Shown here: positions 1 through 14,838 of the stretch, piece after piece
How positions within the stretch are numbered: the first letter of the stretch is position 1
Layout: every line of letters begins with the position of its first letter
Assembly: GCA_038058335.1 (NCBI GenBank)
Contig: JBBUBI010000028.1
Span: 1 to 37,252, forward strand
Direction: 5' to 3'
DNA from: Patescibacteria group bacterium
Lineage (GTDB): Bacteria; Patescibacteriota; Microgenomatia; Levybacterales; UBA12049
Length of the DNA: 37,252 bases
The notes under the pieces: model-generated
The model's database searches: none
What the model was told of the DNA's origin: nothing
What the model saw: the letters and a program-made list of their open reading frames with translations, nothing else
Program-made: the position numbers and the translations under genes

Positions 1-1486
1 CTTCAAGACTTGCTCCTTTTTGGGGATTGGCATATTCTTCCATTACATTCCAATTACCTTCATATGCTACTTGATTACTTCCAAGATTGGCAGGAGATGT
101 ATAAGTGGAAAGAGTATTTTGTTTAATTTGCTCAGGAGAAGCAAAGCCATCAATGCGACTAAATCCTAAATATATCTCTGGAGTTTTTGTTTGAACTTGA
201 TAGGTTGGATTATTTATCTTGGGTGAAACATCTTTAGCTCCGGTTTCTTTGAGTAAGTCCTGGATTACTTTCTCAGTTTCATCATAAGCTCCCTCACCAA
301 AATGGGTGTAACGAATATAGCCCTCCTTATCAATAATGTATTTTGCTGGCCAATACCGATTATCGTAAGACCTCCATGTGGCAAAATCATTATCCTGAAC
401 AACCGGATATTTAATACCAAAATCGGATACGGCTTTTTTCACATTTGACTCACTTTTTTCAAACTCAAATTCCGGTGAGTGGACTCCGATAATCACAAGC
501 CCTTTGTCTTTATATTTTTCCCACCAATTCTTAAGATAGGGAAGCGTCCTCTGGCAATTGATGCATGAATAAGTCCAGAAATCAATAACTACAACTTTTC
601 CTTTAAGTTCGGCAAGGGCTAGCTGATTGCTATTTATCCAAGCGCCTCCGGGAATAATTCCCGGAGCCACTGGCCCTTTGATATTTAATAGATCTGAGGC
701 AGGCTTTCCCATATCTTCACTTTTCGTTTCTCCGCCCATATTATCAAGCTGTTTTTTAATTGCTTCATTATCTTCAAATTGAGTCAGCCCTACACCGTAG
801 TTGGGGAAAGTGTTCAAGATAAATGTCTGAAATTTTCTGTCAATATTAAAGAATATTCCAATCGCAGTAAGAATCATAAGTATTCCAAATACTTTCTGAA
901 TGTTCCCGAGATTTGAAAGAAGCCATGGTACTCGTTTTAGCACATTTTGTCCGCCAAGCATGATGAGAAACATCGGAATTGCAGTGCCCAAGGAGTAGGC
1001 AAGTGTAATCAGAAACGCATCAAAAGTAACAGTTCCCGTAATAGCAAGAGAGATGACTGATGCAAGTATGGGACCCACGCATGGCGTCCAAAGAAGGCCT
1101 ACGGAAAAACCTATCAACAATCCTCCTCCAAAACCTGTTCTGTTTTGACCAGTAGGCATAAATGCAGCAAGCTTTGAGAACAATCTTTCAAGAAGCAATT
1201 GGAATTGCGGAATAAGAAGTGATACACCAAACATCAAGATAACCAAAACAGAAAAAAACCTTAATGAATCTGCTGAAATCCCGCTAAGTCTTACGATCGA
1301 TGAAAGAAAAAGAGTAAAAAAAGTAAAACTTAAGACAAAACCAATCACAACTCCCATGGGACGGGATTTCCCTATATTCTGACCACCGATACTCGAAGTC
1401 AAAATAATAGGAAGTATCGGAAGAATACACGGTGAAAGTACAGTAATAACACCGGCAAGAAAAGCAAAGGCAATAAGTAAGATCAT
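1..1486 (-). CDS. CcdA/DsbD-type thiol-disulfide transporter fused to a C-terminal thioredoxin-like (TlpA/redoxin) domain; 3' end runs off the window
   Basis: Own translation of the minus strand from ATG at 1486..1484: MILLIAFAFLAGVITVLSPCILPILP... (CcdA-like, multi-TM), later ...GKVVVIDFWTYSCINCQRTLPYLKNWW... (CxxC redoxin fold). No stop before position 1, so it is absent from the ORF track. Confidence 0.8.
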   Translation of the reverse strand, partial: MILLIAFAFLAGVITVLSPCILPILPIILTSSIGGQNIGKSRPMGVVIGFVLSFTFFTLFLSSIVRLSGISADSLRFFSVLVILMFGVSLLIPQFQLLLERLFSKLAAFMPTGQNRTGFGGGLLIGFSVGLLWTPCVGPILASVISLAITGTVTFDAFLITLAYSLGTAIPMFLIMLGGQNVLKRVPWLLSNLGNIQKVFGILMILTAIGIFFNIDRKFQTFILNTFPNYGVGLTQFEDNEAIKKQLDNMGGETKSEDMGKPASDLLNIKGPVAPGIIPGGAWINSNQLALAELKGKVVVIDFWTYSCINCQRTLPYLKNWWEKYKDKGLVIIGVHSPEFEFEKSESNVKKAVSDFGIKYPVVQDNDFATWRSYDNRYWPAKYIIDKEGYIRYTHFGEGAYDETEKVIQDLLKETGAKDVSPKINNPTYQVQTKTPEIYLGFSRIDGFASPEQIKQNTLSTYTSPANLGSNQVAYEGNWNVMEEYANPQKGASLE

Positions 1487-1543: not shown

Positions 1544-2056
1544 TTATTTAATATTTTTCAACAGCTCGTTAACTTGTCCGCCGTTCCATTTTACAACTTC
1601 TTTTCCCTCAGCATCAATTTGAACAAATGTGTGCTGGTATGTAATGCCATATTTCTGAGCCAAATCTTTTTCCTCCTGATCCGTCTCGGGATCATTATAA
1701 TTTACCCGTATTACGGTGACATCCTCCGGAATTCTATTTGTGTTTTCCTTTAAGTTGACATCCGTTGGTCTGCACGTAGGACACCAAGAAGCATAAAAAA
1801 ACAATACGCGGCGGTTATCTACAGCTCCTTCAAGAGCTACTCTTGAGTATTCGACATAACGGGCGGCGGTCATTTTATCATCCGCAATCTTGTCATCCTC
1901 AATAGTCCCGCTATCTTTTTCTGTCATGACATTCTCATCCTTAGTCATTTCAGCATCATTAGTTTTCTGAGACCCTTGATTTGCAAAAAAAAATCCCCCT
2001 CCAATGACAAGGACAGCTATAATACCCACAGCAATTAATATTGGATTCTTCATCAT
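1544..2056 (-). CDS. membrane-anchored thioredoxin-family protein
   Basis: N-terminal TM segment and the WCPTC active-site motif in ...VLFFYASWCPTCRP.... Strong SD (GGGAGGTGA) upstream of the ATG and a TTGACA-N17-TACTCT box upstream of that. Confidence 0.8.
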   Translation of the reverse strand: MMKNPILIAVGIIAVLVIGGGFFFANQGSQKTNDAEMTKDENVMTEKDSGTIEDDKIADDKMTAARYVEYSRVALEGAVDNRRVLFFYASWCPTCRPTDVNLKENTNRIPEDVTVIRVNYNDPETDQEEKDLAQKYGITYQHTFVQIDAEGKEVVKWNGGQVNELLKNIK

Positions 2057-3349: not shown

Positions 3350-5032
3350 ATGCTTCTGCCCGATGCTCAGTTAAAAGATCTACTACTTCATTCAGGTGCA
3401 ATTACTGAACAGGTCATTACTGAATTACAAAAATTTGCGAGCGATTCCCGAATCTCTCTTCAGGAAGCCACAATAGAAAAAGATGCAGTTTCGGATGAAA
3501 AATTGGGTCTTCTTATTGCAAATTACCTAAATTATCCTTTCGTATCTTTATCAAAAATTACAATTCCGGACCATATATTCGGAATCGTTCCAGAAAGACT
3601 AGCAAGAAAGCATAAGATAATTCCTTTTGCGCAGGATCAAGATGGATTAAAGCTTGCAATGGCAAGTCCAAATGATATTTCGATCCAGGAGATGATCGCA
3701 AAAAAAACTCAATCGAAGATTTCGCCTTATCTTGCTACGGAAAGGGATATTGACAATACACTGCAGTTATACAGAAAAGATTTGAAACAATCATTTGATG
3801 AGCTTCTCCAAAATGAAATAAACAAAAACACAGACGCCATAGGAGATGCCCCGATTGCAAAAATAATGGACTTACTTATTAAATATGCTTATCGGGATAA
3901 GGCATCTGACATTCATATCGAACCGGAAGAAAAAGATCTTTTGGTACGTTTTCGAATAGACGGAATTCTGCATGACGTACTATACCTTGATAAAAAGCTG
4001 CACGACCGGATCATGACCCGCATTAAAATACTTTCAAGACTGAGAACGGATGAGCATCTAAGCGCTCAGGACGGAAAGATGAGGGTTGTTGTTGATGATG
4101 AAAATTTGGATCTTCGTATTTCCATGATACCAATTGTCGAAGGCGAAAATGCAGTGCTAAGACTTCTGTCATCGCATTTTCGCCAATTCTCCCTTACTGA
4201 CCTGGGCATGAACGGCAAGGATTTAGAAAAAGTTAACGCAGCAATAAATAAATCATACGGAATGATCCTTTCCACCGGACCTACTGGAAGCGGAAAAACA
4301 ACGAGCATTTATGCAATTCTTAAAATTCTAAATACGAGAGAAAAAAATATTACGACCATAGAGGATCCGGTCGAATATAGAATTCAGGGAGTAAATCAAA
4401 TTCAAGTTAATCCGAAAACAAATCTTACATTTGCTGACGGGTTAAGAAGTATTCTCAGGCAAGATCCAAATGTTATTTTTGTCGGAGAGATAAGAGATAA
4501 TGAAACCGCAGGAATTGCCGTAAATGCTGCGCTAACTGGCCATTTAGTTGTCTCCACACTTCATACGAATGACGCGGCTACTGCTCTACCCAGACTTATA
4601 GATATGAAGGTTGAGCCCTTCCTGGTCGCATCAACTGTAAATATCATAATAGCCCAAAGGCTTGTAAGGAAAATTTGTGAGTCATGTAAGGTACAATTGA
4701 CAATTAAACACCATGGCATTGGAGGAATTATCCCTCAGGAAATGACTCTTAAGCATTTTGGTACTACAGAAAATATAACTATTTTCAAAGGACAGGGATG
4801 TAAAATCTGTCACTTTACCGGCTATATGGGCAGGATTGGAATTTTTGAAATTCTTGAAATGACTGAGCTGATTAAAAAACTTATTGCTGAAAAACATGAC
4901 TCCGATATAATTATGAAAGCAGCAATCGAAGAGGGAATGACCACCATGCTTGATGACGGACTGGATAAAATTGTCAAAGGATTCACGACGTTTGAGGAAG
5001 TGCTTAGAGTCACAAAAGTTGGAGGAGTATGA
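3350..5032 (+). CDS. pilB: type IV pilus assembly ATPase (PilB/GspE family)
   Basis: Walker A GPTGSGKTT, Walker B-like VIFVGEIRD, His box GHLVVSTLHTND and a tetracysteine motif (CESCK...CKICHFTGY). The N-terminal region resembles the GspE-N domain. Confidence 0.93.
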   Translation: MLLPDAQLKDLLLHSGAITEQVITELQKFASDSRISLQEATIEKDAVSDEKLGLLIANYLNYPFVSLSKITIPDHIFGIVPERLARKHKIIPFAQDQDGLKLAMASPNDISIQEMIAKKTQSKISPYLATERDIDNTLQLYRKDLKQSFDELLQNEINKNTDAIGDAPIAKIMDLLIKYAYRDKASDIHIEPEEKDLLVRFRIDGILHDVLYLDKKLHDRIMTRIKILSRLRTDEHLSAQDGKMRVVVDDENLDLRISMIPIVEGENAVLRLLSSHFRQFSLTDLGMNGKDLEKVNAAINKSYGMILSTGPTGSGKTTSIYAILKILNTREKNITTIEDPVEYRIQGVNQIQVNPKTNLTFADGLRSILRQDPNVIFVGEIRDNETAGIAVNAALTGHLVVSTLHTNDAATALPRLIDMKVEPFLVASTVNIIIAQRLVRKICESCKVQLTIKHHGIGGIIPQEMTLKHFGTTENITIFKGQGCKICHFTGYMGRIGIFEILEMTELIKKLIAEKHDSDIIMKAAIEEGMTTMLDDGLDKIVKGFTTFEEVLRVTKVGGV

Positions 5033-6081
5033 AAACAGAAAATATCACATTATCAAATAACGATCAATTAAATCTAATTAGTACATTTTCTACATTGATC
5101 AATGCAGGAATTCCTATTCTGGAAACAGTAGAATCTCTCCTAGAAGGCTCCAAGGGAAACATGAGAAAAATCCTAGAGTCAACGAGTGAAGATCTTGTTC
5201 AAGGAAAACCTCTTCATGTGTGTTTTTCAAAATTTCCTGGAGTTTTCGGAAAAGTAACGATAAATATTATTAAAGCTTCTGAAGAGGCGGGAACGCTTGA
5301 TGTAATACTAAAAGACTTGAGGAATCAGGTCCAGAAAGACATGGAATTTGTCGACAGAATAAAATCCGTCCTAATGTATCCGCTTATTATTTTGATAGTT
5401 TTTTTGGGCGTACTCCTTGTAATTCTTGTCGTAGTAATTCCAAAAATCGCTATTGTATTTGCGCAACTGAAGGCCGAGCTTCCTCTACCCACAAAAATTA
5501 TGATTTTTGCATCCAATGCAATCCTACACAACACAATTCCACTTATAGCTATACTTATAGCTTTAGGTGTTGGTTTCTATTTCTCATACAAAGTCCAGAG
5601 AGCAACAGTTCTCCGCGTGCTTTACTCACTTCCAATTGTTTCAACTATCGTTAAGGAGATTGATCTGACGCGATTTTTCAGGAGTATGTATCTATTGCTT
5701 AACTCAGGAATTATTATTACATCAGCCTTAGAGCTAGCAAAAGACGTAGTAATGCGAAAAGACATAGCACAATCAATAGCCTATGCGCAAGAATCTGTCC
5801 TGGCAGGCCGAAGACTCTCGGACGCATTCAAAGACAAAAAGCATCTTTACTCGGGCATCATGATCAAGATCATTGAAGCAGGGGAGAAAACAGGAACTCT
5901 AGACAAATCCATGCAAGACATGTCTGACTATATGGATTATCAAGTCTCAGGCATGCTCAAGACCCTTACCAGTCTTCTCGAACCAATAATGCTTGTTCTT
6001 ATGGCAACTTTGGTAGGGGGGATGATGATGTCAATTATCTCGCCTATTTACGGGATGATCAGCAATGTAGGCGGTAGATAA
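5029..6081 (+). CDS. pilC: type IV pilus inner-membrane platform protein (PilC/GspF family)
   Basis: 350 aa with two GspF-like repeats and three TM segments. ATGA overlap with pilB. Confidence 0.88.
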   Translation: MKTENITLSNNDQLNLISTFSTLINAGIPILETVESLLEGSKGNMRKILESTSEDLVQGKPLHVCFSKFPGVFGKVTINIIKASEEAGTLDVILKDLRNQVQKDMEFVDRIKSVLMYPLIILIVFLGVLLVILVVVIPKIAIVFAQLKAELPLPTKIMIFASNAILHNTIPLIAILIALGVGFYFSYKVQRATVLRVLYSLPIVSTIVKEIDLTRFFRSMYLLLNSGIIITSALELAKDVVMRKDIAQSIAYAQESVLAGRRLSDAFKDKKHLYSGIMIKIIEAGEKTGTLDKSMQDMSDYMDYQVSGMLKTLTSLLEPIMLVLMATLVGGMMMSIISPIYGMISNVGGR

Positions 6082-6083
6082 AA

Positions 6084-6575
6084 GTGAAAAAAACAATTGA
6101 ATCACAGCATGGAACTTCGCTTCTTGAACTCATTATGTTCATGGCTATTGGCTTACTTCTATTCGGATTTGTGACATTTAATTTTGTAAGCTTTCAACAA
6201 AAAACTTCTATTTCCACCTCTATTGACACCCTAATCTCAGATTTCAGCAGTCAACAAACAAAAGCAATGATCGGCGCAGAAAGCAGCGGCACGGGGAATA
6301 GTTACGGAGTATATTTTCAATCAGATAGATATATCCTTTTTGCAGGCTCTGCTTATTCCGGTGCAAATCCAACTAATTTTACTGTGATGCTGGATCCAAA
6401 CATAATTTTTACTGATATTACTTTTCCCGGAAGCGTATTGATTTTTTCACAATTATCAGGTGAAATAGCCGGATTTGCAGACGGAAGTAACACAATCGCA
6501 TTGCAAAGCTCACAGGGATCTGAAAAAAAAACACTTACAATTAATAAATACGGTGTGATAACTGAAATAAATTAA
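6084..6575 (+). CDS. prepilin-type minor pilin / pseudopilin
   Basis: GTG start. Class III signal ...SQHG|TSLLELIMFMAIGLLL with Glu at +5. Confidence 0.75.
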   Translation: MKKTIESQHGTSLLELIMFMAIGLLLFGFVTFNFVSFQQKTSISTSIDTLISDFSSQQTKAMIGAESSGTGNSYGVYFQSDRYILFAGSAYSGANPTNFTVMLDPNIIFTDITFPGSVLIFSQLSGEIAGFADGSNTIALQSSQGSEKKTLTINKYGVITEIN

Positions 6576-6577
6576 AT

Positions 6578-9484
6578 ATGAAAAATGGCCAATCTTTAGT
6601 TGAGCTACTGCTTGCAATAGCTCTTCTTGCAATTATTTTGCCTGGAATTTTAGTAGGATTTTTTGCAACTCGAGGCGGCAGAGCAACTCAAGACCAAAGA
6701 CAGCAGGCAACTGCTTATTTATACGAAGCTCAGGAGGCGATGCGCGTAATCAAAGCGAATGGATGGTCAAATTTATCAACCGGAACATATCATCCGATAC
6801 CAGCTGGAAATTCTTGGTCTCTTGCTAGCAGCTCTGAGCTTATCGATAATAATTTCACCCGTCAGATTGTTATTAGCGATATCTACAGAGACGCAAATGG
6901 CGATGTTGTTTCTCAGGGAGGAACAATTGATCCTTCGATAAAGCTTGCTGACATTACTGTTTCTTGGTCAAATCCATTTCCTGTGTCTGTAAATTCAAAA
7001 ACTTTTCTTACCCGCAACTCAAACAAAGCATTCTCAGAAACTACAGAGACAGATTTTAATGCAGGAACGCTTAGTCAAACACAAGTAACGAATGTCTCCG
7101 GCGGAGAAATAAAACTCGCAAATAATAATAAAGGTAAATGGTGTACTCCTGCTTTCTCAAGTGCCGCAATCGATTTGCCCGATGGGCCTCCGGTTGCCGT
7201 TGCTGCAACTGCGAGTACTGTATCAATAGATAATCCTAATGATGTTTTTGCTGCTGTTGCTCCGAGTGACGCTACTTCAACCAAGCTGGCTTATATCGCC
7301 GTAACGGCTAATGCAGATCCGCCCGTGCCAACTTTAAGAGGTACGTTCACTTTGGATCCGGCAAAGTACAGCTCACCATCTCTAGTTCCTTCAAATATTG
7401 GACTTGATAACAATTTTAAAACAAATGACGTTAAATATTATATTTCCCCCTCGGGAAAACTATACGCACTTCTTGCAACAAATAAACCTGATCGTGAAGT
7501 TATTGCAATTCAAATAAATGATGGAACTTCGGACTCTTTTCAGGATCCAACAAATAAAATCTACAAATACTGGACTTTTTTTGACACGAAGATATATGGC
7601 ACGGCTTTTAATAGTCCCAGCGCTAATTCCGCTGAAACCAGCAGCGCCGGAGACAATAATGGATTCCAAACTAGTCCTGCAAATGCCTATACCAATGATG
7701 GCTTATTTGCGGCTGATGCCAATAGCGGTAATAATACGGGTACCAGCTGCACAGGCATCGATAAAGACAAGCATCGCTATTATAATTATGGTTTTTCACT
7801 TCCAGCAGGCGCAACGATTAACGGTATTGAAATGAATTTAGTCGCTAAGGCGAACAGCACATCAGGTACTCCAAAAATGTGTGTAGAGCTCTCCTGGAAC
7901 GGCGGAACAACGTGGGCCACGGCAAAATCCACAAATAATCTAACCACCAGTTCGGCAAGTTATACCCTGGGCGGACCAACCGATACATGGGGACGGACGT
8001 GGAGCGATACAGACTTCACCGATTCCAATTTTAGAGTACGTGTTATAAATGTTGCCAGTAATACATCGCGTACTTTCTCATTAGATTATGCAGGAATAAA
8101 GGTGTATTACAACGGAATTTCTTCTGGTTCCAACGATCAGGCACCTTATGATTATGGAGCTCCAACTATTAATGTATTAGGGAATACGGGATATGCAGCG
8201 TCGGGTGGATATTTATATGTATTTGATTTAACCAACATTGATAGTAAGTCAGCAAGCAATGGGCTGGATCAGCTTGGCTGTCGAATTCAGCTGGACGGTT
8301 TTGACTGTAAGGCTGATCAAGGTGGTAAAAAATACAACGCAGGCCAAACCGGTACTACATGGAGTAATACGTCAGGTTCGATTCATCCTGATTGTTCAGA
8401 TGGAGGAAATATTGAGCTATATGCAACAAATGATATTTTTCCGGTACAATCGGAAAGCAGTACCTATATTTTTACGGCTATTGGTGGAATCACAAATCCG
8501 GAATTCGAAATAGTTAATACTACAAATGTTCCGAACGGCTCATCAAACCCTTCCATAAGCAGCTCCTCCTGCGGCAGAATATCCGGAGGAAATGCGGGCT
8601 GGAAAGTAATCAGTTCTTATGATTTCAATTCAGTCAGCTCAACAGAAGAAGCCGCAAATTCTATATTTGCCAATGGAGACGGTACGAGAGCTTATATCTC
8701 ATCAAACGGAGGAATTGACGGAGACGGAAACGGCCAGCCGGATAGCAAACAATATTATATTCTTAATACAACCAATAAAAGCAGTCCCGCCTTTCTTTCG
8801 GGTTCACCTTCTACTGGTCCATCAAGCGGATATTATAATTCCTCTGGAGCAAATGGCGAATTATATCCAAGGCGGGCAATGACTGTACAGAATGGAGTAC
8901 GGGCTGTATTGGTGGGAAAAGACGGAATTTCAAACGGCAATGATGCGGAAGAATATCAAGTCTTAGACAGCACGACAGAAGCAACTCCTACTTACTGCGG
9001 GGGACTTAATTACGATATCGGCTTCAATGACCTTACTTCTGTTTCAGAGCTCGATGGAGACAATTATGTTTATATGGTTGCGAATACAGCAGCAAATGAG
9101 CTTAAGATTATTCAAGGAGGTCCGGACAATGCCATATTTGTCCCATCCGGAACATTTGAATCTCAAGTCCTTTCTGCAGCCTCAGAAGCAATGTTTAATC
9201 GGTTCAATGTAAACGCCACGACTATGCCGCAAACAACTCTTACCTATCAAGTTGCGATAGCCAAAGCCATTAATAATAGCTGTTCTGGTGTTTCCTATTC
9301 TTATGTTGGACCGGATGGAACCTCGGGCACATATTTTACAACAAGCAGTGTATTGCCCGTAAGTACGAGCCCGACAGGCTATCAAAATCCAGGACAATGC
9401 GTAAGATATAAGACATATATGACTTCTGCCGATCAATTGCTGACACCAATTCTCTACGATATTTATTTTAATTATTCACCATGA
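6578..9484 (+). CDS. giant (968 aa) prepilin-like protein; candidate pilus-tip adhesin
   Basis: N-terminus MKNG|QSLVELLLAIALLAIILPG has a prepilin cleavage motif with Glu at +5. The rest is rich in Ser/Thr/Asn/Gly with scattered Cys, consistent with an extracellular beta-rich protein. Confidence 0.75.
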   Translation: MKNGQSLVELLLAIALLAIILPGILVGFFATRGGRATQDQRQQATAYLYEAQEAMRVIKANGWSNLSTGTYHPIPAGNSWSLASSSELIDNNFTRQIVISDIYRDANGDVVSQGGTIDPSIKLADITVSWSNPFPVSVNSKTFLTRNSNKAFSETTETDFNAGTLSQTQVTNVSGGEIKLANNNKGKWCTPAFSSAAIDLPDGPPVAVAATASTVSIDNPNDVFAAVAPSDATSTKLAYIAVTANADPPVPTLRGTFTLDPAKYSSPSLVPSNIGLDNNFKTNDVKYYISPSGKLYALLATNKPDREVIAIQINDGTSDSFQDPTNKIYKYWTFFDTKIYGTAFNSPSANSAETSSAGDNNGFQTSPANAYTNDGLFAADANSGNNTGTSCTGIDKDKHRYYNYGFSLPAGATINGIEMNLVAKANSTSGTPKMCVELSWNGGTTWATAKSTNNLTTSSASYTLGGPTDTWGRTWSDTDFTDSNFRVRVINVASNTSRTFSLDYAGIKVYYNGISSGSNDQAPYDYGAPTINVLGNTGYAASGGYLYVFDLTNIDSKSASNGLDQLGCRIQLDGFDCKADQGGKKYNAGQTGTTWSNTSGSIHPDCSDGGNIELYATNDIFPVQSESSTYIFTAIGGITNPEFEIVNTTNVPNGSSNPSISSSSCGRISGGNAGWKVISSYDFNSVSSTEEAANSIFANGDGTRAYISSNGGIDGDGNGQPDSKQYYILNTTNKSSPAFLSGSPSTGPSSGYYNSSGANGELYPRRAMTVQNGVRAVLVGKDGISNGNDAEEYQVLDSTTEATPTYCGGLNYDIGFNDLTSVSELDGDNYVYMVANTAANELKIIQGGPDNAIFVPSGTFESQVLSAASEAMFNRFNVNATTMPQTTLTYQVAIAKAINNSCSGVSYSYVGPDGTSGTYFTTSSVLPVSTSPTGYQNPGQCVRYKTYMTSADQLLTPILYDIYFNYSP

Positions 9485-10011
9485 CTTTATTTTCTAAATT
9501 AACCAGCAAGAAGGGAAGACGTGGATCTACTCTCATAGAGCTTTTACTATACATCGGGATTTTTTCAATTCTTACAGCCGTACTTTTTCAATTTTTTGGG
9601 ACTATCATCGATACACAGCTTGAATCACAAAGTACTTCATCAGTTCTATTGGATGGACAGTATGCTCTTAACCGATTTAATTATGATATTAAGCGGGCAG
9701 ATAGTATCATTTCACCTGCGATTGGAGAACAATCTTCAACGCTACAGCTATCCATCGACAGCATCACATATACGTATACCCTGATTGATGGAGATATTAC
9801 AATTGCAAGTAGTGGGACTCAGACCACGGACCAACTAAACAGCGTGAATACCAACTCTTCTAATCTCAGCTTTACTCATCTTGGAGATACTCAGAGCGGA
9901 AATGTTGAGACCATAACCATATCATTTACACTTGCAAGCGATATTGCCAACCGGGGGAATCCGGAAGCAAGAAATTATAAATCAACATTTGGTATTCGTC
10001 CAAGACAATAA
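9481..10011 (+). CDS. prepilin-type minor pilin
   Basis: ...KKGRRG|STLIELLLYIGIFSILTAVLF with Glu at +5. ATGA overlap with the preceding gene. Confidence 0.75.
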   Translation: MTLFSKLTSKKGRRGSTLIELLLYIGIFSILTAVLFQFFGTIIDTQLESQSTSSVLLDGQYALNRFNYDIKRADSIISPAIGEQSSTLQLSIDSITYTYTLIDGDITIASSGTQTTDQLNSVNTNSSNLSFTHLGDTQSGNVETITISFTLASDIANRGNPEARNYKSTFGIRPRQ

Positions 10012-10016
10012 GAAAT

Positions 10017-10400
10017 ATGCTAAATCAATTAATTAATTTAAGAAATTCCAAAGGACAAGCGCTCGTAACATTGCTGTTTTTTGTAATTATTGGTATAACA
10101 ATAATATCGGCAGAAGCAATCGTTCTTTACACAAACATCCTTTCTGCAAGCACGGCAGAGCAGGGAATGGATGCATATTATCTTGCAGAAAGCGGTATTG
10201 AAGAAGGATTAATTCGTTTAATTCGCGATCCAAGTTATAGTGGGGGATCGCTTACTGTTGGCTCAGGAACCGTTGACATACAAGTTGCAAGTGGGATAAT
10301 TACGGCAACTGGCACATTCCATAATGCCATCAGGAAAATTCAGGTAACAACGGCGAACATTAATGGTGCGATAGCGGTCGATTCCTGGGAGGAAATTTAA
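10017..10400 (+). CDS. PilX/GspK-like minor pilin lacking Glu+5
   Basis: ...NSKG|QALVTLLFFVIIGITII: hydrophobic pilin-like N-terminus with Thr instead of Glu at +5. Confidence 0.6.
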   Translation: MLNQLINLRNSKGQALVTLLFFVIIGITIISAEAIVLYTNILSASTAEQGMDAYYLAESGIEEGLIRLIRDPSYSGGSLTVGSGTVDIQVASGIITATGTFHNAIRKIQVTTANINGAIAVDSWEEI

Positions 10401-10401
10401 A

Positions 10402-11223
10402 ATGAATTCTTTAAATAAACAAACCATAGTTTGCTATATTGACAGCAGTAAAATTCTTTTTTATCTGGGCATGACTGGCGCGATACTTCAGCTTGACTTT
10501 CCACCGGAGGTTCTATCGTACATGGATCTTCTCCGCAAGGATAAATTTGAGCAGCTTATTGAAGTCTTTCTTCAACAAAACAAATTGGCTGGAGGCAATT
10601 GCATTATAATTTATTCTGCTAATTCATCCTTTGATAAAGATTTTGCGGAAAATGAATCCGGAAAGGATGATGCTGAAATACAGAAATTTATCGATATAGT
10701 TCCTTTCGAAGATGTCTTAAGTAAAGCTTACAAGCTAAACAAGAAAACAAAAGTTGTTGCTATAAACAATCGAATAAATGAGTCAATTAGATTTGTTCTG
10801 GAGAGAAACAAATTCCTTATTCACGCTATAATTCCGGTATCAATTCTTCAAGAAACTTTTCCAGAATTAAAAACGAACATTGACTTAGGATTTATATCTA
10901 GTAAGGCAGACTCGATAAAACAATTTAGTATTATAAGCGGCAGCGTAACTAATAGTAGTTTGACAGTTGAAAAGAAACCTGAATCAAAAGAAAAAAATAA
11001 GAGACCTTATGTGTTAGGAGGTGTATTCGGTGCCCTTCTTGTTATTTTAATCATAGTTATTGTAGCCAATCTCTCACAACCTCCTCCAAAAAAGCCTTCA
11101 GGAATAATTGGTTCACCACCACCACAGACACCAAGACCTGTAATAGAAGAAACATCCAGAAATGAGAACCCACCTGTGATAATGGAAACATCCTCAACCC
11201 CAAGTGGTGCTATAAATCAGTGA
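10402..11223 (+). CDS. bitopic membrane protein in the pilus operon (possible assembly component), with a Pro-rich C-terminal tail
   Basis: 273 aa, single TM VLGGVFGALLVILIIVIVANL near residue 205, then PPPKKPSGIIGSPPPQTPRPV.... SD GGGAGGAAA upstream. Any function is inferred from operon position only. Confidence 0.55.
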   Translation: MNSLNKQTIVCYIDSSKILFYLGMTGAILQLDFPPEVLSYMDLLRKDKFEQLIEVFLQQNKLAGGNCIIIYSANSSFDKDFAENESGKDDAEIQKFIDIVPFEDVLSKAYKLNKKTKVVAINNRINESIRFVLERNKFLIHAIIPVSILQETFPELKTNIDLGFISSKADSIKQFSIISGSVTNSSLTVEKKPESKEKNKRPYVLGGVFGALLVILIIVIVANLSQPPPKKPSGIIGSPPPQTPRPVIEETSRNENPPVIMETSSTPSGAINQ

Positions 11224-11255: not shown

Positions 11256-11285
11256 TTGACAAGATGTTTTAATTATGTGAATAAT
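11256..11285 (+). promoter_or_regulatory. sigma70-like promoter of pilin copy 1 (TTGACA-N18-AATAAT)
   Basis: TTGACA at 11256..11261 and AATAAT at 11280..11285. Only 10 nt separate the -10 box from the ATG, with no SD. Confidence 0.55.
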
Positions 11286-11295
11286 TAATACATAC

Positions 11296-11802
11296 ATGAA
11301 AACAAATCTGCCCAGATTAGTTAAGACTCAATCTTCAAAAGGTTTTACTCTTATTGAGCTTCTCGTCGTTATCGGTATCCTAGCAATTCTTCTCTCGATC
11401 GTTCTTATCGCCATTAACCCAGCAAGACAATTTGGTCAGGCAAATGACACAAAAAGACAAAGTGCTGTAACTCAAATACTTAATGCAGTCGGAGCATATC
11501 ATGCTGATAATAAGGGGCAATTGCCACTTAATATTCCAGTATCACCAGCAGCAGCAGCACAAATAGCATGGGACGGTGTTACACCAAATGCACCAGGTAA
11601 TATCTGCGCTGCTCTATTGGGAACTGCTGGTGATGGATATATCCCTGCTCTACCAGTAGATCCAACACTTACTGGAGGAGACATTACTAATTGCGCAGCT
11701 TTATATGCTACTGGATACTTTATAGTGCAGGATGCAAACGGAAGAGTAACGGTATCAGCTCCAAGCTCAGAAGTTACCACTCCAATTACGATAACCCGAT
11801 AA
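11296..11802 (+). CDS. type IV major pilin, copy 1
   Basis: ...SSKG|FTLIELLVVIGILAILLSIVLIAINP, a canonical class III signal and alpha-1 helix. Two Cys (NICAAL...TNCAAL) could form a C-terminal disulfide loop. Confidence 0.9.
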   Translation: MKTNLPRLVKTQSSKGFTLIELLVVIGILAILLSIVLIAINPARQFGQANDTKRQSAVTQILNAVGAYHADNKGQLPLNIPVSPAAAAQIAWDGVTPNAPGNICAALLGTAGDGYIPALPVDPTLTGGDITNCAALYATGYFIVQDANGRVTVSAPSSEVTTPITITR

Positions 11803-12187: not shown

Positions 12188-12217
12188 TTGACAAGATGTT
12201 TTAATTATGTGAATAAT
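12188..12217 (+). promoter_or_regulatory. sigma70-like promoter of pilin copy 2
   Basis: Identical TTGACA-N18-AATAAT element, duplicated with the cassette. Confidence 0.55.
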
Positions 12218-12227
12218 TAATACATAC

Positions 12228-12740
12228 ATGAAAAGAAATCTGCCCAGATTAGTTAAGACTCAATCTTCAAAGGGTTTTACATTAATTGAACTTCTAGTCG
12301 TAATCGGAATTTTAGCAATCCTTCTCTCTATTGTTCTTATAGCCATTAACCCAGCAAGACAATTTGGTCAGGCAAATGACACAAAAAGACAAAGCGCTGT
12401 AACTCAAATACTTAATGCAGTCGGAGCATATCATGCTGATAATAAAGGGCAATTGCCACCTAATATTCCAGTAGGAGTCGTTGGAACCAATGAGGTTCAA
12501 ATCGCATGGGATGGTATTACTGCAAATGCACCAGGTAATATTTGCTCTGCTCTATTGGGAACTGCTGGTGATGGATATATCCCTGCTCTACCAGTAGATC
12601 CAACGCTTACTGGAGGAGACATTACTAATTGCTCAATTGCATATGCTACTGGATACTTTATAGTACAGGATGCAAACGGAAGAGTAACAGTAATTGCTCC
12701 AAGCTCAGAAGTTACCACTCCAATTCAAATAACCAGATAA
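12228..12740 (+). CDS. type IV major pilin, copy 2 (variant central region)
   Basis: The N-terminal ~77 aa are almost identical to copy 1. The central segment differs (PNIPVGVVGTNEVQIAWDGITANA vs LNIPVSPAAAAQIAWDGVTPNA). Confidence 0.9.
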   Translation: MKRNLPRLVKTQSSKGFTLIELLVVIGILAILLSIVLIAINPARQFGQANDTKRQSAVTQILNAVGAYHADNKGQLPPNIPVGVVGTNEVQIAWDGITANAPGNICSALLGTAGDGYIPALPVDPTLTGGDITNCSIAYATGYFIVQDANGRVTVIAPSSEVTTPIQITR

Positions 12741-12875: not shown

Positions 12876-13745
12876 TTACGGAAGACTTTCGCAGACTACT
12901 CCATCTCTATCCGAATCCAGTTTGTGCGGATCGATACCTGGCTCGCCATTTTCAATGAAAAAATCCTGCGCTTCTCTCTGGGTCGCAAAATCCTTACAAT
13001 CCCTATCTCCCTCAATACTCTTCGAACTTCCGACCTGCGAGGTCGATGAGCCTGAAACCTGCGAGGTTGAATTTGAGATTGAATTTTGACAAGAATTATC
13101 TGCCCAAAGCCCACGTTTTTCATTTTGTGCTTCTAGCTGAGCATTCTTGTAGGAAGATTGATATTTATAAGGAGTATTGTACGTGTATTCGTAAGCATAT
13201 CCTTGAGATATCATTTGCAAACCGTAATCAACATTTCCATCATCTGCAAAAACATAACGAAGAAGCCTTTGGTATTTATCACGCTCCCCTTGACCCTCAT
13301 CTTTTTCAAGCCAAGCTTGGTAATTTTTTGACTTGAAATATTCTTTCGCTTTATTTGATGCTTCAATTCCAAAACACTCAACACCAGTCCTTGGATCTAC
13401 AGTCTCCGGAGTATTGATGCCGATTATCCTTATCGTTTGATTTTGACCGTTCAAATTGACTGTAATCGTATCTCCATCCACAACTTTCACAATCATCGCT
13501 TGCTCTAAATTTCTTAGAGAAGCAGTGTTTTCTTCAAGCCGTGAAGACAAAGAGGGAGCAGGGGAGTTGGGAAGATTTAATTCTGGTGTAGGACTTTCAA
13601 TCTGCTCCTTATTATTAGTACTCAGTACTTCTTGACCTACATCATCTAAAGACTTCTTGGAAAGAGGAAGAATTATGATTAAAATCGTGAATATTACAAT
13701 TGAAGCCAGTCCAATTATTCTTCTATTCACAATAGAACTATACAA
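12876..13745 (-). CDS. membrane-anchored or secreted thermonuclease (SNase-like) with a C-terminal Excalibur Ca-binding domain
   Basis: ...VVDGDTITV...IRIIGINTPE...RDKYQRLLRYVF...GLWAD (staphylococcal-nuclease pattern) plus DSDRDGVVCE (Excalibur DxDxDGxxCE). N-terminal TM segment. The start is non-ATG (TTG 13745 or GTG 13730). Confidence 0.8.
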   Translation of the reverse strand: MYSSIVNRRIIGLASIVIFTILIIILPLSKKSLDDVGQEVLSTNNKEQIESPTPELNLPNSPAPSLSSRLEENTASLRNLEQAMIVKVVDGDTITVNLNGQNQTIRIIGINTPETVDPRTGVECFGIEASNKAKEYFKSKNYQAWLEKDEGQGERDKYQRLLRYVFADDGNVDYGLQMISQGYAYEYTYNTPYKYQSSYKNAQLEAQNEKRGLWADNSCQNSISNSTSQVSGSSTSQVGSSKSIEGDRDCKDFATQREAQDFFIENGEPGIDPHKLDSDRDGVVCESLP

Positions 13746-13872: not shown

Positions 13873-14838
13873 CTAAGCTCTGACTAGACGGCAGGTGGGG
13901 ATGGAAATTTGGATTTGGAAGAATCTGAAGTTAAGCGTTTTAATCTGCGTCGAGCAAGTCACTGTAAAAAGCCTTGGAAAGGGTAATGGCGAAGGAACAG
14001 GCGACACGATCGGAGTTATTGTTGGCACTGCAGTTGGTGCAACTGTAACCGTAGGGATAGCTGTAGGCTCTGTAGTTGGTGTGGGAATAGATGTTGGTTC
14101 GATTGTAGGCGTAGGAACTTCAGTAGGAACAACCGTTGGCTCAAGAGTTGGTGTGGGAACTTCTGACGGAGTAGGCACAGCTACAGGCTCAACGCTTGAA
14201 GAGCTATTCTGAGGTTGAGAAATAGTCCTCACGATAAAATCTGCGGAATTATCATCTGTATCCTCTGCATTACCTAAAAACTCATCAATTCCAGCTATAT
14301 CCATAGAGACAATAGTTGAGGAAGAATTTGCCTTTCTCTCAACACTTTGCCCGGCAGAAGGCGTTGCTGGCGGAGCTCCTTCCCCAAGAGTATGAAGAGC
14401 AACTCCAATTGTAAGCGCATCAATTATAGTTCCTGTATTCAGGGCTCCATCACGAAGCGCAATTGTGTTGTTGTTCGAAATTGTGTCTGCTGAATGCTTA
14501 TCGCATCCTAAATTTGAGGAAATATGATTAAAACACCAAAGTAAAAAACCGTGCGAAGCAATTACATCACTTGCGCCAAAATTGACAATTAGTGTATCCG
14601 TTGATCCGCTGCTAGTCCTCTTAACAAGATTAAAGCTCGATAAATTAACAGGCAGAGAAGTCGGATTGTAGAGTTCGATAAAATCAGCGCTTGCCGAAGC
14701 TCCCGCTATCTGAACCTCGGAAATTACTATACTAGTCGCAGTAGCTGATTCGGCTTTGGAAGCTGTGTTGAAGAAAATAACCAGACCTCCGATCAGTAAA
14801 ACCGCGGGCAAAAGCCAGAGCAGGTTGACCTTTTTCAT
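13873..14838 (-). CDS. secreted lamin-tail-domain (LTD) protein with a Pro/Thr-rich repeat tail
   Basis: Signal-like N-terminus, then ...VISEVQIAG...ADFIELYNPTSLPVNLSSFNLV... (LTD signature) and (E)PT-rich repeats PTPTLEPTVVPTEVPTPTIEPTSIPTPTTEPT. Confidence 0.7.
   Translation of the reverse strand: MKKVNLLWLLPAVLLIGGLVIFFNTASKAESATATSIVISEVQIAGASASADFIELYNPTSLPVNLSSFNLVKRTSSGSTDTLIVNFGASDVIASHGFLLWCFNHISSNLGCDKHSADTISNNNTIALRDGALNTGTIIDALTIGVALHTLGEGAPPATPSAGQSVERKANSSSTIVSMDIAGIDEFLGNAEDTDDNSADFIVRTISQPQNSSSSVEPVAVPTPSEVPTPTLEPTVVPTEVPTPTIEPTSIPTPTTEPTAIPTVTVAPTAVPTITPIVSPVPSPLPFPRLFTVTCSTQIKTLNFRFFQIQISIPTCRLVRA

Follow-up and report, generated by a model that had tools for sequence, protein, structure and literature searches.

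How CPR bacteria choose their partner cells has been addressed experimentally in oral Saccharibacteria only. There, two minor pilins, PilX1 with a jelly-roll of the CBM/lectin-like type and PilX2 with a 7-bladed propeller, both bind to the cell wall of the host and to peptidoglycan, and efficient host binding needs PilX2; according to the authors of the work on Nanosynbacter lyticus TM7x, these pilins are poorly conserved beyond Saccharibacteria (PMC11623550; bioRxiv 10.64898/2026.10.06.756255). Modular pilins have also been described in Streptococcus sanguinis, where PilB carries a vWA and PilC a lectin module (Raynaud et al., 2021; PMC8179133, PMC9934059).

The window analysed here, a stretch of DNA of 37,252 nucleotides from a Levybacteria-like bacterium (Microgenomates, CPR), encodes a pilin of 968 aa, hereafter the giant pilin. 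We hold it to be rather probable that this protein is a modular type IV minor pilin located near the pilus tip and, as we propose, binding glycans. Large modular tip pilins are already known in related bacteria, and the giant pilin belongs to that kind. Like PilX1 and PilX2 of TM7x it is a CPR type IV minor pilin, the largest in its locus, with a raised content of G+A+S+T (~36-40 %). Unlike them, it combines a predicted propeller and a jelly-roll in one chain, the jelly-roll being nested, and its leader is canonical with Glu+5, whereas PilX1 and PilX2 were described as lacking a predicted PilD signal. PilX2 has a heptabladed propeller made of RCC1 repeats; in the giant pilin and in 45 orthologues a propeller-like region is supported, and Pfam detected no RCC1 repeats. 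As the TM7x pilins are poorly conserved beyond Saccharibacteria, the kinship is best regarded as analogy, homology not being established beyond the pilin stem.

The giant pilin also fits the definition of a modular pilin (Raynaud et al., 2021), consisting of a pilin part and a domain found outside T4P, namely the module of residues 341-514. It shares with the pilins of that survey an N-terminal 'carrier', an 'effector' module that is also used outside T4P, predicted exposure at the tip and an effector of the lectin/CBM type. Those proteins are simple bimodular ones, however, whereas the giant pilin has three distal units, one of them nested, and with 968 aa it surpasses the survey's extreme of 860 residues (PMC8179133). 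The preliminary description had called this size unusual, which is true in a merely relative sense, because large modular pilins have already been described. Surveys of modular pilins miss the family since its distal domains have no InterPro or Pfam signature.

The minor-pilin gene cluster

In the window, the operon order is pilB-pilC-pilin-GIANT-pilin-pilin, and the genes of the cluster adjoin or overlap one another:

3350..5032, + strand: PilB-type assembly ATPase (T2SSE and MshEN)
5029..6081, + strand: PilC/GspF platform protein (T2SSF)
6084..6575, + strand: 163-aa minor pilin with Glu+5 and a weak GspH/PpdA-like match
6578..9484, + strand: giant pilin gene, whole, encoding the 968-aa modular minor pilin (mature ~102 kDa, pI 4.5)
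9481..10011, + strand: 176-aa minor pilin with Glu+5, an N_methyl match and a weak GspJ-like match; ATGA overlap with the stop of the giant pilin gene
10017..10400, + strand: 127-aa pilin-like protein whose residue +5 is Thr
10402..11223, + strand: 273-aa protein, not a pilin, with a single TM segment and a tail rich in Pro; conserved in the cluster
11296..11802, + strand: major pilin, copy A (168 aa); promoter-like site of its own at 11256-11285
12228..12740, + strand: major pilin, copy B (170 aa); promoter-like site of its own at 12188-12217

The order ATPase-PilC-pilin(E5)-GIANT(E5)-pilin(E5)-small pilin(no E5)-TM protein-major pilin recurs, with few exceptions, in 67 loci, a count that includes the window and two other loci examined singly. 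The position of the giant pilin between two minor pilins of ordinary size, with the ATGA overlap, had been pointed out in the preliminary description; the 163-aa gene indeed ends at 6575 and the 176-aa gene starts at 9481, and the survey of relatives proposed there found the position fixed in the 67 loci. Neither PilD (Peptidase_A24) nor PilT was found in the source assembly (96.5 % complete, 74 contigs); both are present in 20/20 relatives. Just downstream of the cluster, a lamin-tail-domain protein and a secreted nuclease (SNase + Excalibur) are encoded on the opposite strand.

Glu+5 is absent from every orthologue detected at the position of the 127-aa pilin in the 67 loci (~125-150 aa), and this protein is predicted to be the cap subunit, in the GspK/PilX position. 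GspK/PilX, CofB and Thermus ComZ resemble the giant pilin in being minor pilins of the filament tip that are enlarged with extra domains. However, GspK and PilX lack Glu+5, whereas the giant pilin possesses it; in the comparison with large GspK-like proteins proposed earlier, it is the 127-aa pilin two genes downstream that shows the cap-type absence of Glu+5. The extra domains differ as well. GspK has an alpha-domain, CofB a beta-repeat and a sandwich, and ComZ a DNA-binding beta-solenoid; in none of them is a jelly-roll nested in a propeller.

Pilin stem and distal domains

The giant pilin gene has 968 codons from an ATG start, with no N and zero internal stops. A whole-protein AlphaFold2 (AF2) model of its product (pLDDT 82) shows four parts, which together with the sequence features divide the gene as follows:

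6578..6589, + strand: leader peptide MKNG, 4 residues with Gly at its end; prepilin-peptidase site predicted from sequence before Q5
6590..6760, + strand: alpha-1 helix, residues 5-61, with hydrophobic alpha-1N carrying Glu+5, then amphipathic alpha-1C (AF2 and profile matches)
6761..7132, + strand: globular pilin head, a beta-sheet, residues 62-185 (AF2 strands 69-180)
7133..7597, + strand: beta-propeller-like region, N-terminal part, residues 186-340, with the invariant motif KWC-P...DLPDGPPVAVA
7598..8119, + strand: nested jelly-roll module, residues 341-514 (~172 aa), with the Asp-box LSWNGGTTW and the conserved Cys pair C391, C435
8120..9157, + strand: beta-propeller-like region, C-terminal part, residues 515-860, best conserved of all parts (mean pairwise identity 67 %)
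9158..9484, + strand: C-terminal beta domain, residues 861-968, with C902 and C941, plus the stop; common to the ~650-aa short relatives

The N-terminus reads MKNG/QSLVELLLAIALLAIILPG, with Gly-1 and Glu+5, and contains a class III signal (MKNG/QSLVE-LLLAIALLAIILPG) in which a short leader is followed by a hydrophobic stretch. Leaders of the orthologues comprise 4-25 residues, terminate in G and precede x-x-[LIV]-[LIV]-E; Glu+5 occurs in 65/67 large pilins surveyed, and in the other 2 the leader was undetected by the pattern. With the N-terminal methylation models (PF07963 / TIGR02532) the giant pilin scores 17.0 bits, which is below the cut-off of 21.2; PF07963 matches 22/45 orthologues at E<=0.1 (best 4.5e-5), and TIGR02532 matches 7/19 orthologue stems. 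Profile matches of the giant pilin to ComGE, GspI, GspH and the N_methyl motif are weak and consistent, the best NCBIfam matches of the stem being ComGE, and the alpha-1 profile matches Thermus PilA, geopilin and PilE1. The pilin motif alone was found in Pfam, NCBIfam and PDB sequence searches with the whole protein and four sub-regions. In the AF2 model, the 57-residue helix (5-61) and the beta head, with strands at 69-154, form a lollipop-like layout; between residues 41 and 140 pLDDT is mostly 82-90, falling to 67-69 at 101-120.

These findings uphold the bona fide prepilin N-terminus of the preliminary description, to which the leader with Glu+5, the AF2 helix and head, the profile matches and the synteny all testify; structure prediction gave no sign of the non-pilin N-terminus that had been named as a possible objection. 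Two further statements made there also proved correct. The protein is rich in Ser, Thr, Gly and Asn (S 11.7, T 9.8, G 9.3, N 8.9 %), and its single hydrophobic segment is the N-terminal one, the Kyte-Doolittle maximum elsewhere being 0.89 (19-residue window). At 39.7 %, the content of G+A+S+T resembles that of other pilins; PilB and PilC have 24-25 %. The product of 6578..9484 is, by prediction, a genuine type IV pilus subunit, a reading that no available test contradicted, and its processing by the prepilin peptidase at the predicted cleavage site and its polymerisation into the filament would be expected.

The all-beta region formed by residues 186-340 and 515-860 may be read as a roughly 7-bladed propeller, judging from strand counts and low-TM fold matches. 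Foldseek matches of the whole chain are propeller-containing proteins (DDB1, WD40-type) and phage tail proteins, usable at the level of the fold class only because TM is low (<=0.22); PilY1 is not among the top 50 of them. LVIVD repeats are matched in 4/45 orthologues and in P0150. The mature protein is acidic, as is each of its domains (pI 4.1-5.3; D+E 84 vs K+R 55). Scattered Cys pairs had been remarked upon earlier; 10 Cys are present, each invariant in 45 orthologues, with C391/C435 as one conserved pair.

A discrete beta-sandwich module had likewise been suspected, at residues ~390-510. The module is real, and predicted to be a jelly-roll, but it extends over residues ~341-514, as delimited by the homology limits, by orthologues missing exactly 342-514 and by a stand-alone model (pLDDT 95.6, pTM 0.91). 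The best PDB matches of this model in Foldseek are CBM4-2 (2y6j, 1k42), CBM32, CBM22, CBM15 and CBM16 (E 3e-4 to 3e-3, TM 0.43-0.55), and with an identity of 10-17 % and TM about 0.5 the likeness to CBM structures exists at fold level only. The modelling thus suggests a beta-jelly-roll with a CBM-like fold and makes carbohydrate binding a candidate function. Jelly-roll folds are found in capsids and toxins as well. The module resembles CBM4/CBM9/CBM22/CBM32 in being a predicted beta-jelly-roll of ~170 residues that occurs on secreted hydrolases, often in tandem. Unlike these, it lies outside all CBM Pfam families, with no match even at E<=1 (PF02018 included), and has its own strongly conserved signature, GDNNGF...KDKH.FYNY...LSWNGG.TW...DTWGR.W...FRVR...; neither Pfam nor NCBIfam holds a model of it. 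A homology of the module to sialidases was rejected, as its profile matched the Asp-box alone in PDB (E 0.013), which is a shared motif.

At 50-69 % identity, the module recurs at the C-termini of secreted hydrolases of Nitrospirota, Chloroflexota and Acidobacteriota. Its carriers in other phyla are S8 and M14 peptidases, deacetylases, amylases, phosphatases and Kelch/PKD/FN3 proteins, and the secreted proteins have 1-10 copies. This distribution at the ends of secreted enzymes matches that of targeting or binding domains and therefore counts in favour of a binding role. In the module tree, the pilin-borne copies fall into two clades with non-pilin modules between them; because the backbone is weak, no donor or direction is assigned.

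Conservation and exchange of the distal part

The giant pilin has database matches in 457 clusters, of which the best 120 contain proteins of 945-1035 aa (one 710-aa fragment excepted) that are 55-85 % identical over 96-100 % of the query. Full-length orthologues occur by the hundreds in Microgenomates (Levy-, Woese-, Shapiro- and Roizmanbacteria). A fusion of two genes by an assembly error, the other objection foreseen in the preliminary description, is rejected in view of these full-length orthologues of like size and the same gene order in 67 loci.

The distal domains had been suspected of hypervariability. Instead they are the best conserved ones, with mean pairwise identities of 64-67 % vs 48-49 % in the pilin part, and across the order they match the PilB ATPase in conservation (56-76 %), far above the neighbouring pilins. 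Such conservation would fit an invariant ligand, and equally a structural or assembly role. What varies in the distal part appears to do so through the exchange of whole domains or alleles. Among three relatives that are equidistant by PilB (84-88 %) and PilC (78-83 %), two have the long form and one has a form of 651 aa. The latter, from the same genus, is 72-78 % identical in the stem and ~30 % past it; over residues 1-120 of the giant pilin, the identity to the same-genus short allele is 72 %. The pilin head follows genome relatedness, and these patterns point to a mosaic of carrier and effector in which the stem would be the vertically inherited 'carrier'.

The site at which the module is inserted varies too. 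Among 64 orthologues it holds the module in 44, is empty in 16 and holds a CBM_4_9-like domain in 3 (Pfam E 1.4e-4); the remaining 1 has the module in an adjacent loop. With CBM_4_9 (PF02018), whose cut-off is 25.9 bits, the alternative insert of orthologue L072 reaches 22.7 bits. By parsimony, these states require ~12 changes, and the insertion site thus seems to behave as a display socket.

Place in the pilus and possible functions

In the mechanism that we propose, the prepilin peptidase would cut off the 4-residue leader, and the alpha-1 helix and the small pilin head would dock the giant pilin into a minor-pilin priming complex, together with the two Glu+5 pilins of 163 and 176 aa and the cap without Glu+5 (127 aa). 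Since this complex would initiate each filament, it would come to lie at the pilus tip or immediately below it; the giant pilin is probably not the topmost subunit, because it has Glu+5. Its ~780 distal residues would be too large for the filament interior and hence project outwards, as an acidic, disulfide-stabilised beta-propeller-like body and a C-terminal beta domain, with the CBM-like jelly-roll plugged into one propeller loop. Jointly, these parts may bind a conserved ligand, either a glycan or a cell-wall component, that partner cells or surfaces present, and retraction by PilT, which is known from relatives, would then draw the cell in. The giant pilin, analogous to PilX1 and PilX2 of Saccharibacteria, would most probably be what the pilus uses to grip other cells.

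Alternatively, the giant pilin may be a PilY1-like assembly factor, in effect a minor pilin covalently fused to a PilY1-type propeller, with the propeller acting as a structural plug that primes assembly and counters retraction and with ligand binding secondary or absent. We consider this unlikely. The PilY1/PilC tip adhesins of diderm T4aP resemble the giant pilin in having a large beta-propeller with four core minor pilins at the tip and variable, modular accessory domains. Several observations suit this alternative. PilY1 and minor pilins prime T4aP assembly (Treuner-Lange, 2020, as cited in PMC11623550). The place of the giant pilin among four minor pilins is invariant, and its distal region is conserved like PilB, as co-evolving internal contacts would yield. 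PF05567 had no match in 21 genomes, but the control genomes gave none either, so that the absence of a separate PilY1 is unproven by this search. PilY1 itself is a non-pilin that docks on the minor-pilin complex, whereas the predicted propeller of the giant pilin is covalently joined to a pilin. The comparison with PilY1 proposed earlier yielded no PF05567 match in the giant pilin (E<=0.01) or in 45 orthologues (E<=0.1). Moreover, a purely structural role leaves unexplained a socket that alternates between two kinds of CBM-like domain or none, nor does it account for the genome of the same genus that combines the same machinery with a quite different distal part of 651 aa. TM7x can extrude filaments without its propeller pilin PilX2 (PMC11623550).

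It is improbable that the giant pilin is a pilus-borne enzyme, whose catalytic propeller (a glycoside hydrolase, a lyase or an Asp-box sialidase-like domain) would be targeted by the module so that the tip cuts or remodels the partner wall. The association of the module with secreted hydrolases elsewhere would agree with this function, as would the very high conservation of the distal domains, their motifs resembling Asp-boxes and the numerous D, E, R, H and Y residues that are invariant in them; carbohydrate-active enzymes commonly have a CBM nested in their catalytic domain. However, searches of Pfam, NCBIfam and PDB sequences returned zero enzyme-family matches, the whole-chain fold matches are non-enzymatic (DDB1, phage tail, WD40-type), and the Asp-box is a structural motif that many non-enzymes have. 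Least credible of all is a DNA receptor of a competence-type pilus, which would catch extracellular DNA in the manner of Thermus ComZ, to be taken up by a nucleotide-auxotrophic CPR cell. The nuclease and the lamin-tail protein downstream, dprA close to the cluster in locus L003 and the ComGE matches of the stem would accord with such a receptor, but it is considered unlikely because every domain of the giant pilin is acidic. Furthermore, a DNA-binding fold or motif was not found in the giant pilin, the domains swapped into the socket are CBM-like, and the nuclease and LTD neighbours are not kept beside the cluster in L003 or L005.

The reading as a glycan-binding minor pilin near the tip can be extended, tentatively and with considerable doubt, to the distal part being a host-range determinant of Microgenomates episymbionts that is traded between them much as receptor-binding proteins are among phages. 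Ancient classes of alleles (about 650, 810, 970 and 1070 aa) would recombine onto the vertical stem, as would plug-in CBM-like cassettes, and strains of one genus would thereby grip different partners with nearly identical pilus machines. The 172-residue module would then represent a new and widespread family of carbohydrate-binding domains, present also in secreted hydrolases of Nitrospirota and Chloroflexota.

For the far larger, uncultivated Microgenomates, the family offers a concrete candidate for partner attachment, a ~100-kDa pilin whose exposed part is exchanged among close relatives while the machinery stays constant. Its ~780 distal residues, including the widespread 172-residue domain, have no Pfam/NCBIfam model, and pipelines label the proteins 'PulG' or 'hypothetical'. 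As a defined family, the module would provide annotation for well over a thousand secreted proteins in several phyla. The source organism is an ultrasmall groundwater bacterium. Its genome, like that of TM7x, has two T4P loci, each with one large pilin, and a paralogous pilin head is encoded on contig C4 of the same genome (E 4e-19).

The large pilin gene and its surroundings

The gene of the large pilin is an uninterrupted reading frame of 968 codons with an ATG start and zero ambiguous bases. It belongs to a pilus cluster flanked by redox and nuclease genes:

2-1486, minus strand: DsbD/CcdA-redoxin fusion, directly upstream of pilB
1544-2056, minus strand: anchored thioredoxin, directly upstream of pilB
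3350-5032, plus strand: PilB ATPase
5029-6081, plus strand: PilC
between PilC and the large pilin, plus strand: 163-aa pilin
6578-9484, plus strand: large pilin, 968 aa
directly after the large pilin, plus strand: 176-aa pilin
after the 176-aa pilin, plus strand: 127-aa pilin-like protein
after the 127-aa protein, plus strand: 273-aa protein with a single TM
cluster end, plus strand: two near-identical major pilins, each with its own promoter-like site
12876-13745, minus strand: secreted SNase + Excalibur nuclease, convergent with the pilus cluster
13873-14838, minus strand: lamin-tail-domain (LTD) protein, convergent with the pilus cluster

The N-terminus, MKNG|QSLVELLLAIALLAIILPG, combines Gly-1 and Glu+5 with about 20 hydrophobic residues and a predicted pilin lollipop, which confirms the prepilin N-terminus recognized in the preliminary description. 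Further sequence observations made there also held: no second hydrophobic segment follows (Kyte-Doolittle maximum past residue 40, 0.89), Ser, Thr, Gly, and Asn are enriched, and the stop codon overlaps the start of the 176-aa pilin gene by ATGA. The gap to the preceding 163-aa pilin-like gene is 2 bp. In its G+A+S+T content (39.7 %) the protein resembles the adjacent pilins (33-38 %) and differs from PilB and PilC (24-25 %). The mature protein (~102 kDa, pI 4.5) is acidic in every domain, and all of its 10 Cys are invariant. The upstream redoxin fusion and thioredoxin, also present in a relative (L088:3483-5692), may provide disulfide chemistry for these residues. The nuclease/LTD neighborhood is not conserved at the related loci L003 or L005. 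Both major-pilin copies have identical, near-consensus promoter-like sites (TTGACA-18-AATAAT; 11256-11285 and 12188-12217, plus strand), and no site of comparable quality was seen for the minor-pilin genes, a difference consistent with the major pilins being transcribed separately and more strongly.

A homologue search retrieved 457 clusters. The best 120 of these comprise proteins of 945-1035 aa, except one 710-aa fragment, with 55-85 % identity across 96-100 % of the query; their named sources are Patescibacteria, Microgenomates, or Levybacteria MAGs. Further members in a GTDB genome scan are recorded under Levyibacteriota, Woesebacteria, Shapirobacteria, Roizmanbacteria, and Microgenomates. 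For dozens of MAG records (L007-L061 and others) whose locus is clearly of CPR type, the title reads "uncultured Gammaproteobacteria" or "Pseudomonadales", probably a placeholder or wrong taxonomic label. Order-wide, the family is represented in 62 of 121 genomes, with approximate counts of 19 for the long, 5 for the module-less, and 35 for the short form. Nearly all of 67 surveyed loci share one gene order: ATPase (~560 aa), PilC (~350 aa), a pilin (~160 aa, Glu+5), the large pilin (Glu+5), a pilin (~165-190 aa, Glu+5), a small pilin (~122-150 aa), a non-pilin protein (220-400 aa), and the major pilin(s). An assembly artefact is ruled out by this survey and by the full-length homologues among the best 120 clusters. 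The conserved pilin set is thus similar to the priming complexes GspH/I/J/K or FimU/PilV/W/X, each with four members. In contrast to these, the subunit without Glu+5 is not the giant but the smallest pilin, which never has this residue where it was detected in the 67 loci and, by analogy, is presumed to be the cap.

Predicted architecture and the nested module

AlphaFold2, based on a 45-orthologue alignment (mean pLDDT 81.6, pTM 0.62), predicts a helix (residues 5-61), strands completing a pilin lollipop (69-180), and an all-beta chain thereafter to the C-terminus. In the PDB, profiles of the N-terminal stem match the alpha-1 helices of Thermus PilA, geopilin, and S. sanguinis PilE1; the NCBIfam models matched are ComGE (16 of 19 stems), GspI, GspH, and TIGR02532. 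These matches are weak or sub-threshold, yet point to one class, the pilins. Whole-chain Foldseek neighbors were propeller-containing proteins (DDB1, CPSF160, SF3B3, pre-ribosomal WD40 proteins, podophage tail proteins) at TM <=0.22, low values being expected for a multidomain query. LVIVD propeller repeats were recognized in 4 of 45 orthologues and one 1027-aa relative. Four-stranded units in the DSSP string suggest about seven propeller blades, spread over residues 186-340 and 515-860; residues 861-968 would make up a C-terminal beta domain.

An exhaustive HMMER search with the whole protein (5523 matches, E<=1e-3) returned relatives over the full length, ~630-700-aa relatives aligned solely at residues ~1-260 and ~620/690-968, and many unrelated proteins aligned solely at residues 341-512 (42-69 % identity). 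The unnamed beta-sandwich of the preliminary description therefore exists, but homology and a stand-alone model place it at residues 341-514 instead of 390-510. No Pfam or NCBIfam model for this ~172-residue module was found. A search restricted to it retrieved 1227 proteins with 1-10 copies, most commonly as the last domain. Partners include S8 and M14 peptidases, metallophosphatases, polysaccharide deacetylases, an amylase, Kelch, PKD, FN3, He_PIG, and RHS, and organisms with the module outside pilins include Manganitrophaceae/Nitrospirota, Chloroflexota, and Acidobacteriota. Non-pilin proteins such as P0175 (3109 aa), P0173, P0286, and P0289 contain 5-10 tandem, more divergent copies, and the 181-aa P0269 is essentially the module by itself. 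At the sequence level, the sole similarity to solved structures is a sialidase Asp-box motif (LSWNGGTTW). The stand-alone model, built from 25 diverse copies (pLDDT 95.6, pTM 0.91), has as its best PDB neighbors beta-jelly-roll carbohydrate-binding modules (CBM4-2, CBM32, CBM22, CBM15, CBM16, CBM35/36; E 3e-4 to 3e-3, TM 0.43-0.55). Judged by this predicted fold, the module is a previously undescribed, widespread CBM-like domain.

Conservation and domain exchange

In orthologues of ~790-835 aa the missing segment is precisely residues 342-514, and positions equivalent to ~341 and ~515 are joined directly. This insertion site, or socket, was mapped on a tree that covered 64 large pilins and left out the insert. 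It holds the 172-aa module at 44 loci and is empty at 16. At three (L065, L066, L072) it carries a different ~150-aa domain starting with NG(S/N)FETG, whose L072 copy, the only one scanned, matched Pfam CBM_4_9 slightly below threshold (E 1.4e-4), and at one (L068) the module is shifted one loop earlier. About 12 parsimony changes are needed for this distribution. The strongest argument for a possible use of this predicted surface in ligand binding is that one loop alternately carries two unrelated CBM-like domains. At two module-less loci the large pilin is separated from the following pilin by an extra secreted protein of 595 or 747 aa (L053:11524-13311, L073:11516-13759); the two proteins have a C-terminal region with a Cys-rich motif in common, and the L073 protein has NHL-like repeats in addition.

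Hypervariability of the distal domains, suggested for survey in the preliminary description, was not found within the long form. Mean pairwise identity is 48.6 % in alpha-1, 48.9 % in the pilin head, 64.8 % in the N-terminal and 67.2 % in the C-terminal propeller part, 64.0 % in the module, and 47.5 % in the C-terminal domain. Even in distant genomes (PilB 55-70 %, PilC 48-61 %) propeller and module retain 54-76 % identity, about the ATPase level and far above other minor pilins (28-48 %). Of three equally close relatives (PilB 84-88 %, PilC 78-83 %), L089 and L088 encode the long form, whereas in the same-genus genome G001 (L087) a 651-aa form occupies the identical syntenic slot. It lacks the module and much of the middle region, and its identity to the giant falls from 78 % (residues 1-80) through 62 % (81-120) and 50 % (121-160) to ~25-40 % further on. 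The carrier thus appears to follow the genome, and the distal effector to have been exchanged among old allele classes, perhaps by recombination, transfer, or differential loss. Together, these sequence comparisons point to a conserved pilin stem on which domains and alleles are swapped.

Possible function and a second pilus locus

Modular pilins are an established concept, exemplified by S. sanguinis PilB and PilC; a survey found >1,200 examples, the most extreme with 860 residues (PMC8179133). The present family is larger and, having domains without signatures, goes unnoticed in surveys of this type. In the saccharibacterium TM7x, host cell walls and peptidoglycan are the ligands of two such pilins, PilX1 (pilin plus jelly-roll) and PilX2 (pilin plus 7-bladed RCC1 propeller), of which PilX2 is required for efficient host binding but dispensable for filament extrusion (PMC11623550; bioRxiv 10.64898/2026.10.06.756255). 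The giant, in contrast, unites both domain kinds in one chain with a canonical leader. Neither it nor the 45 orthologues contain an RCC1 or PF05567 signature. By analogy it would work like these pilins, although membership of their families is not demonstrable. Giant modular minor pilins of this kind are a genuine Microgenomates family, well conserved and hitherto without annotation.

The best-supported reading, which we consider reasonably probable, is that the leader is cleaved, the stem enters the minor-pilin priming complex, and the bulky acidic propeller with its CBM-like plug-in would project from the tip region and bind a conserved ligand, either a glycan or a cell-wall component. A PilY1-like role in priming or anti-retraction is unlikely, and an enzyme borne on the pilus more doubtful still. 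The least probable function, that of a DNA receptor, might be indicated by the nuclease and LTD protein adjoining the cluster, but the giant is acidic. Retraction ATPase PilT (TIGR01420 over cut-off) and PilD (Peptidase_A24) were each found in 20 of 20 relatives, and neither was found in the assembly studied here (850,808 bp, 74 contigs, 96.5 % complete), probably owing to an assembly gap.

A second T4P-like locus in the same genome encodes another large pilin (contig C4:1298-2983, minus strand; at least 555 aa, with an N-run breaking the sequence) and ATPase fragments (C4:4486-4734 and C41:93-962). This genome thus has two pilus systems with one big pilin each, as does TM7x. The head of the C4 pilin is homologous to that of the giant (E 4e-19); beyond it, YRIWDGSSWS / VQVWDGRCWG-type repeats form a different propeller-like domain.
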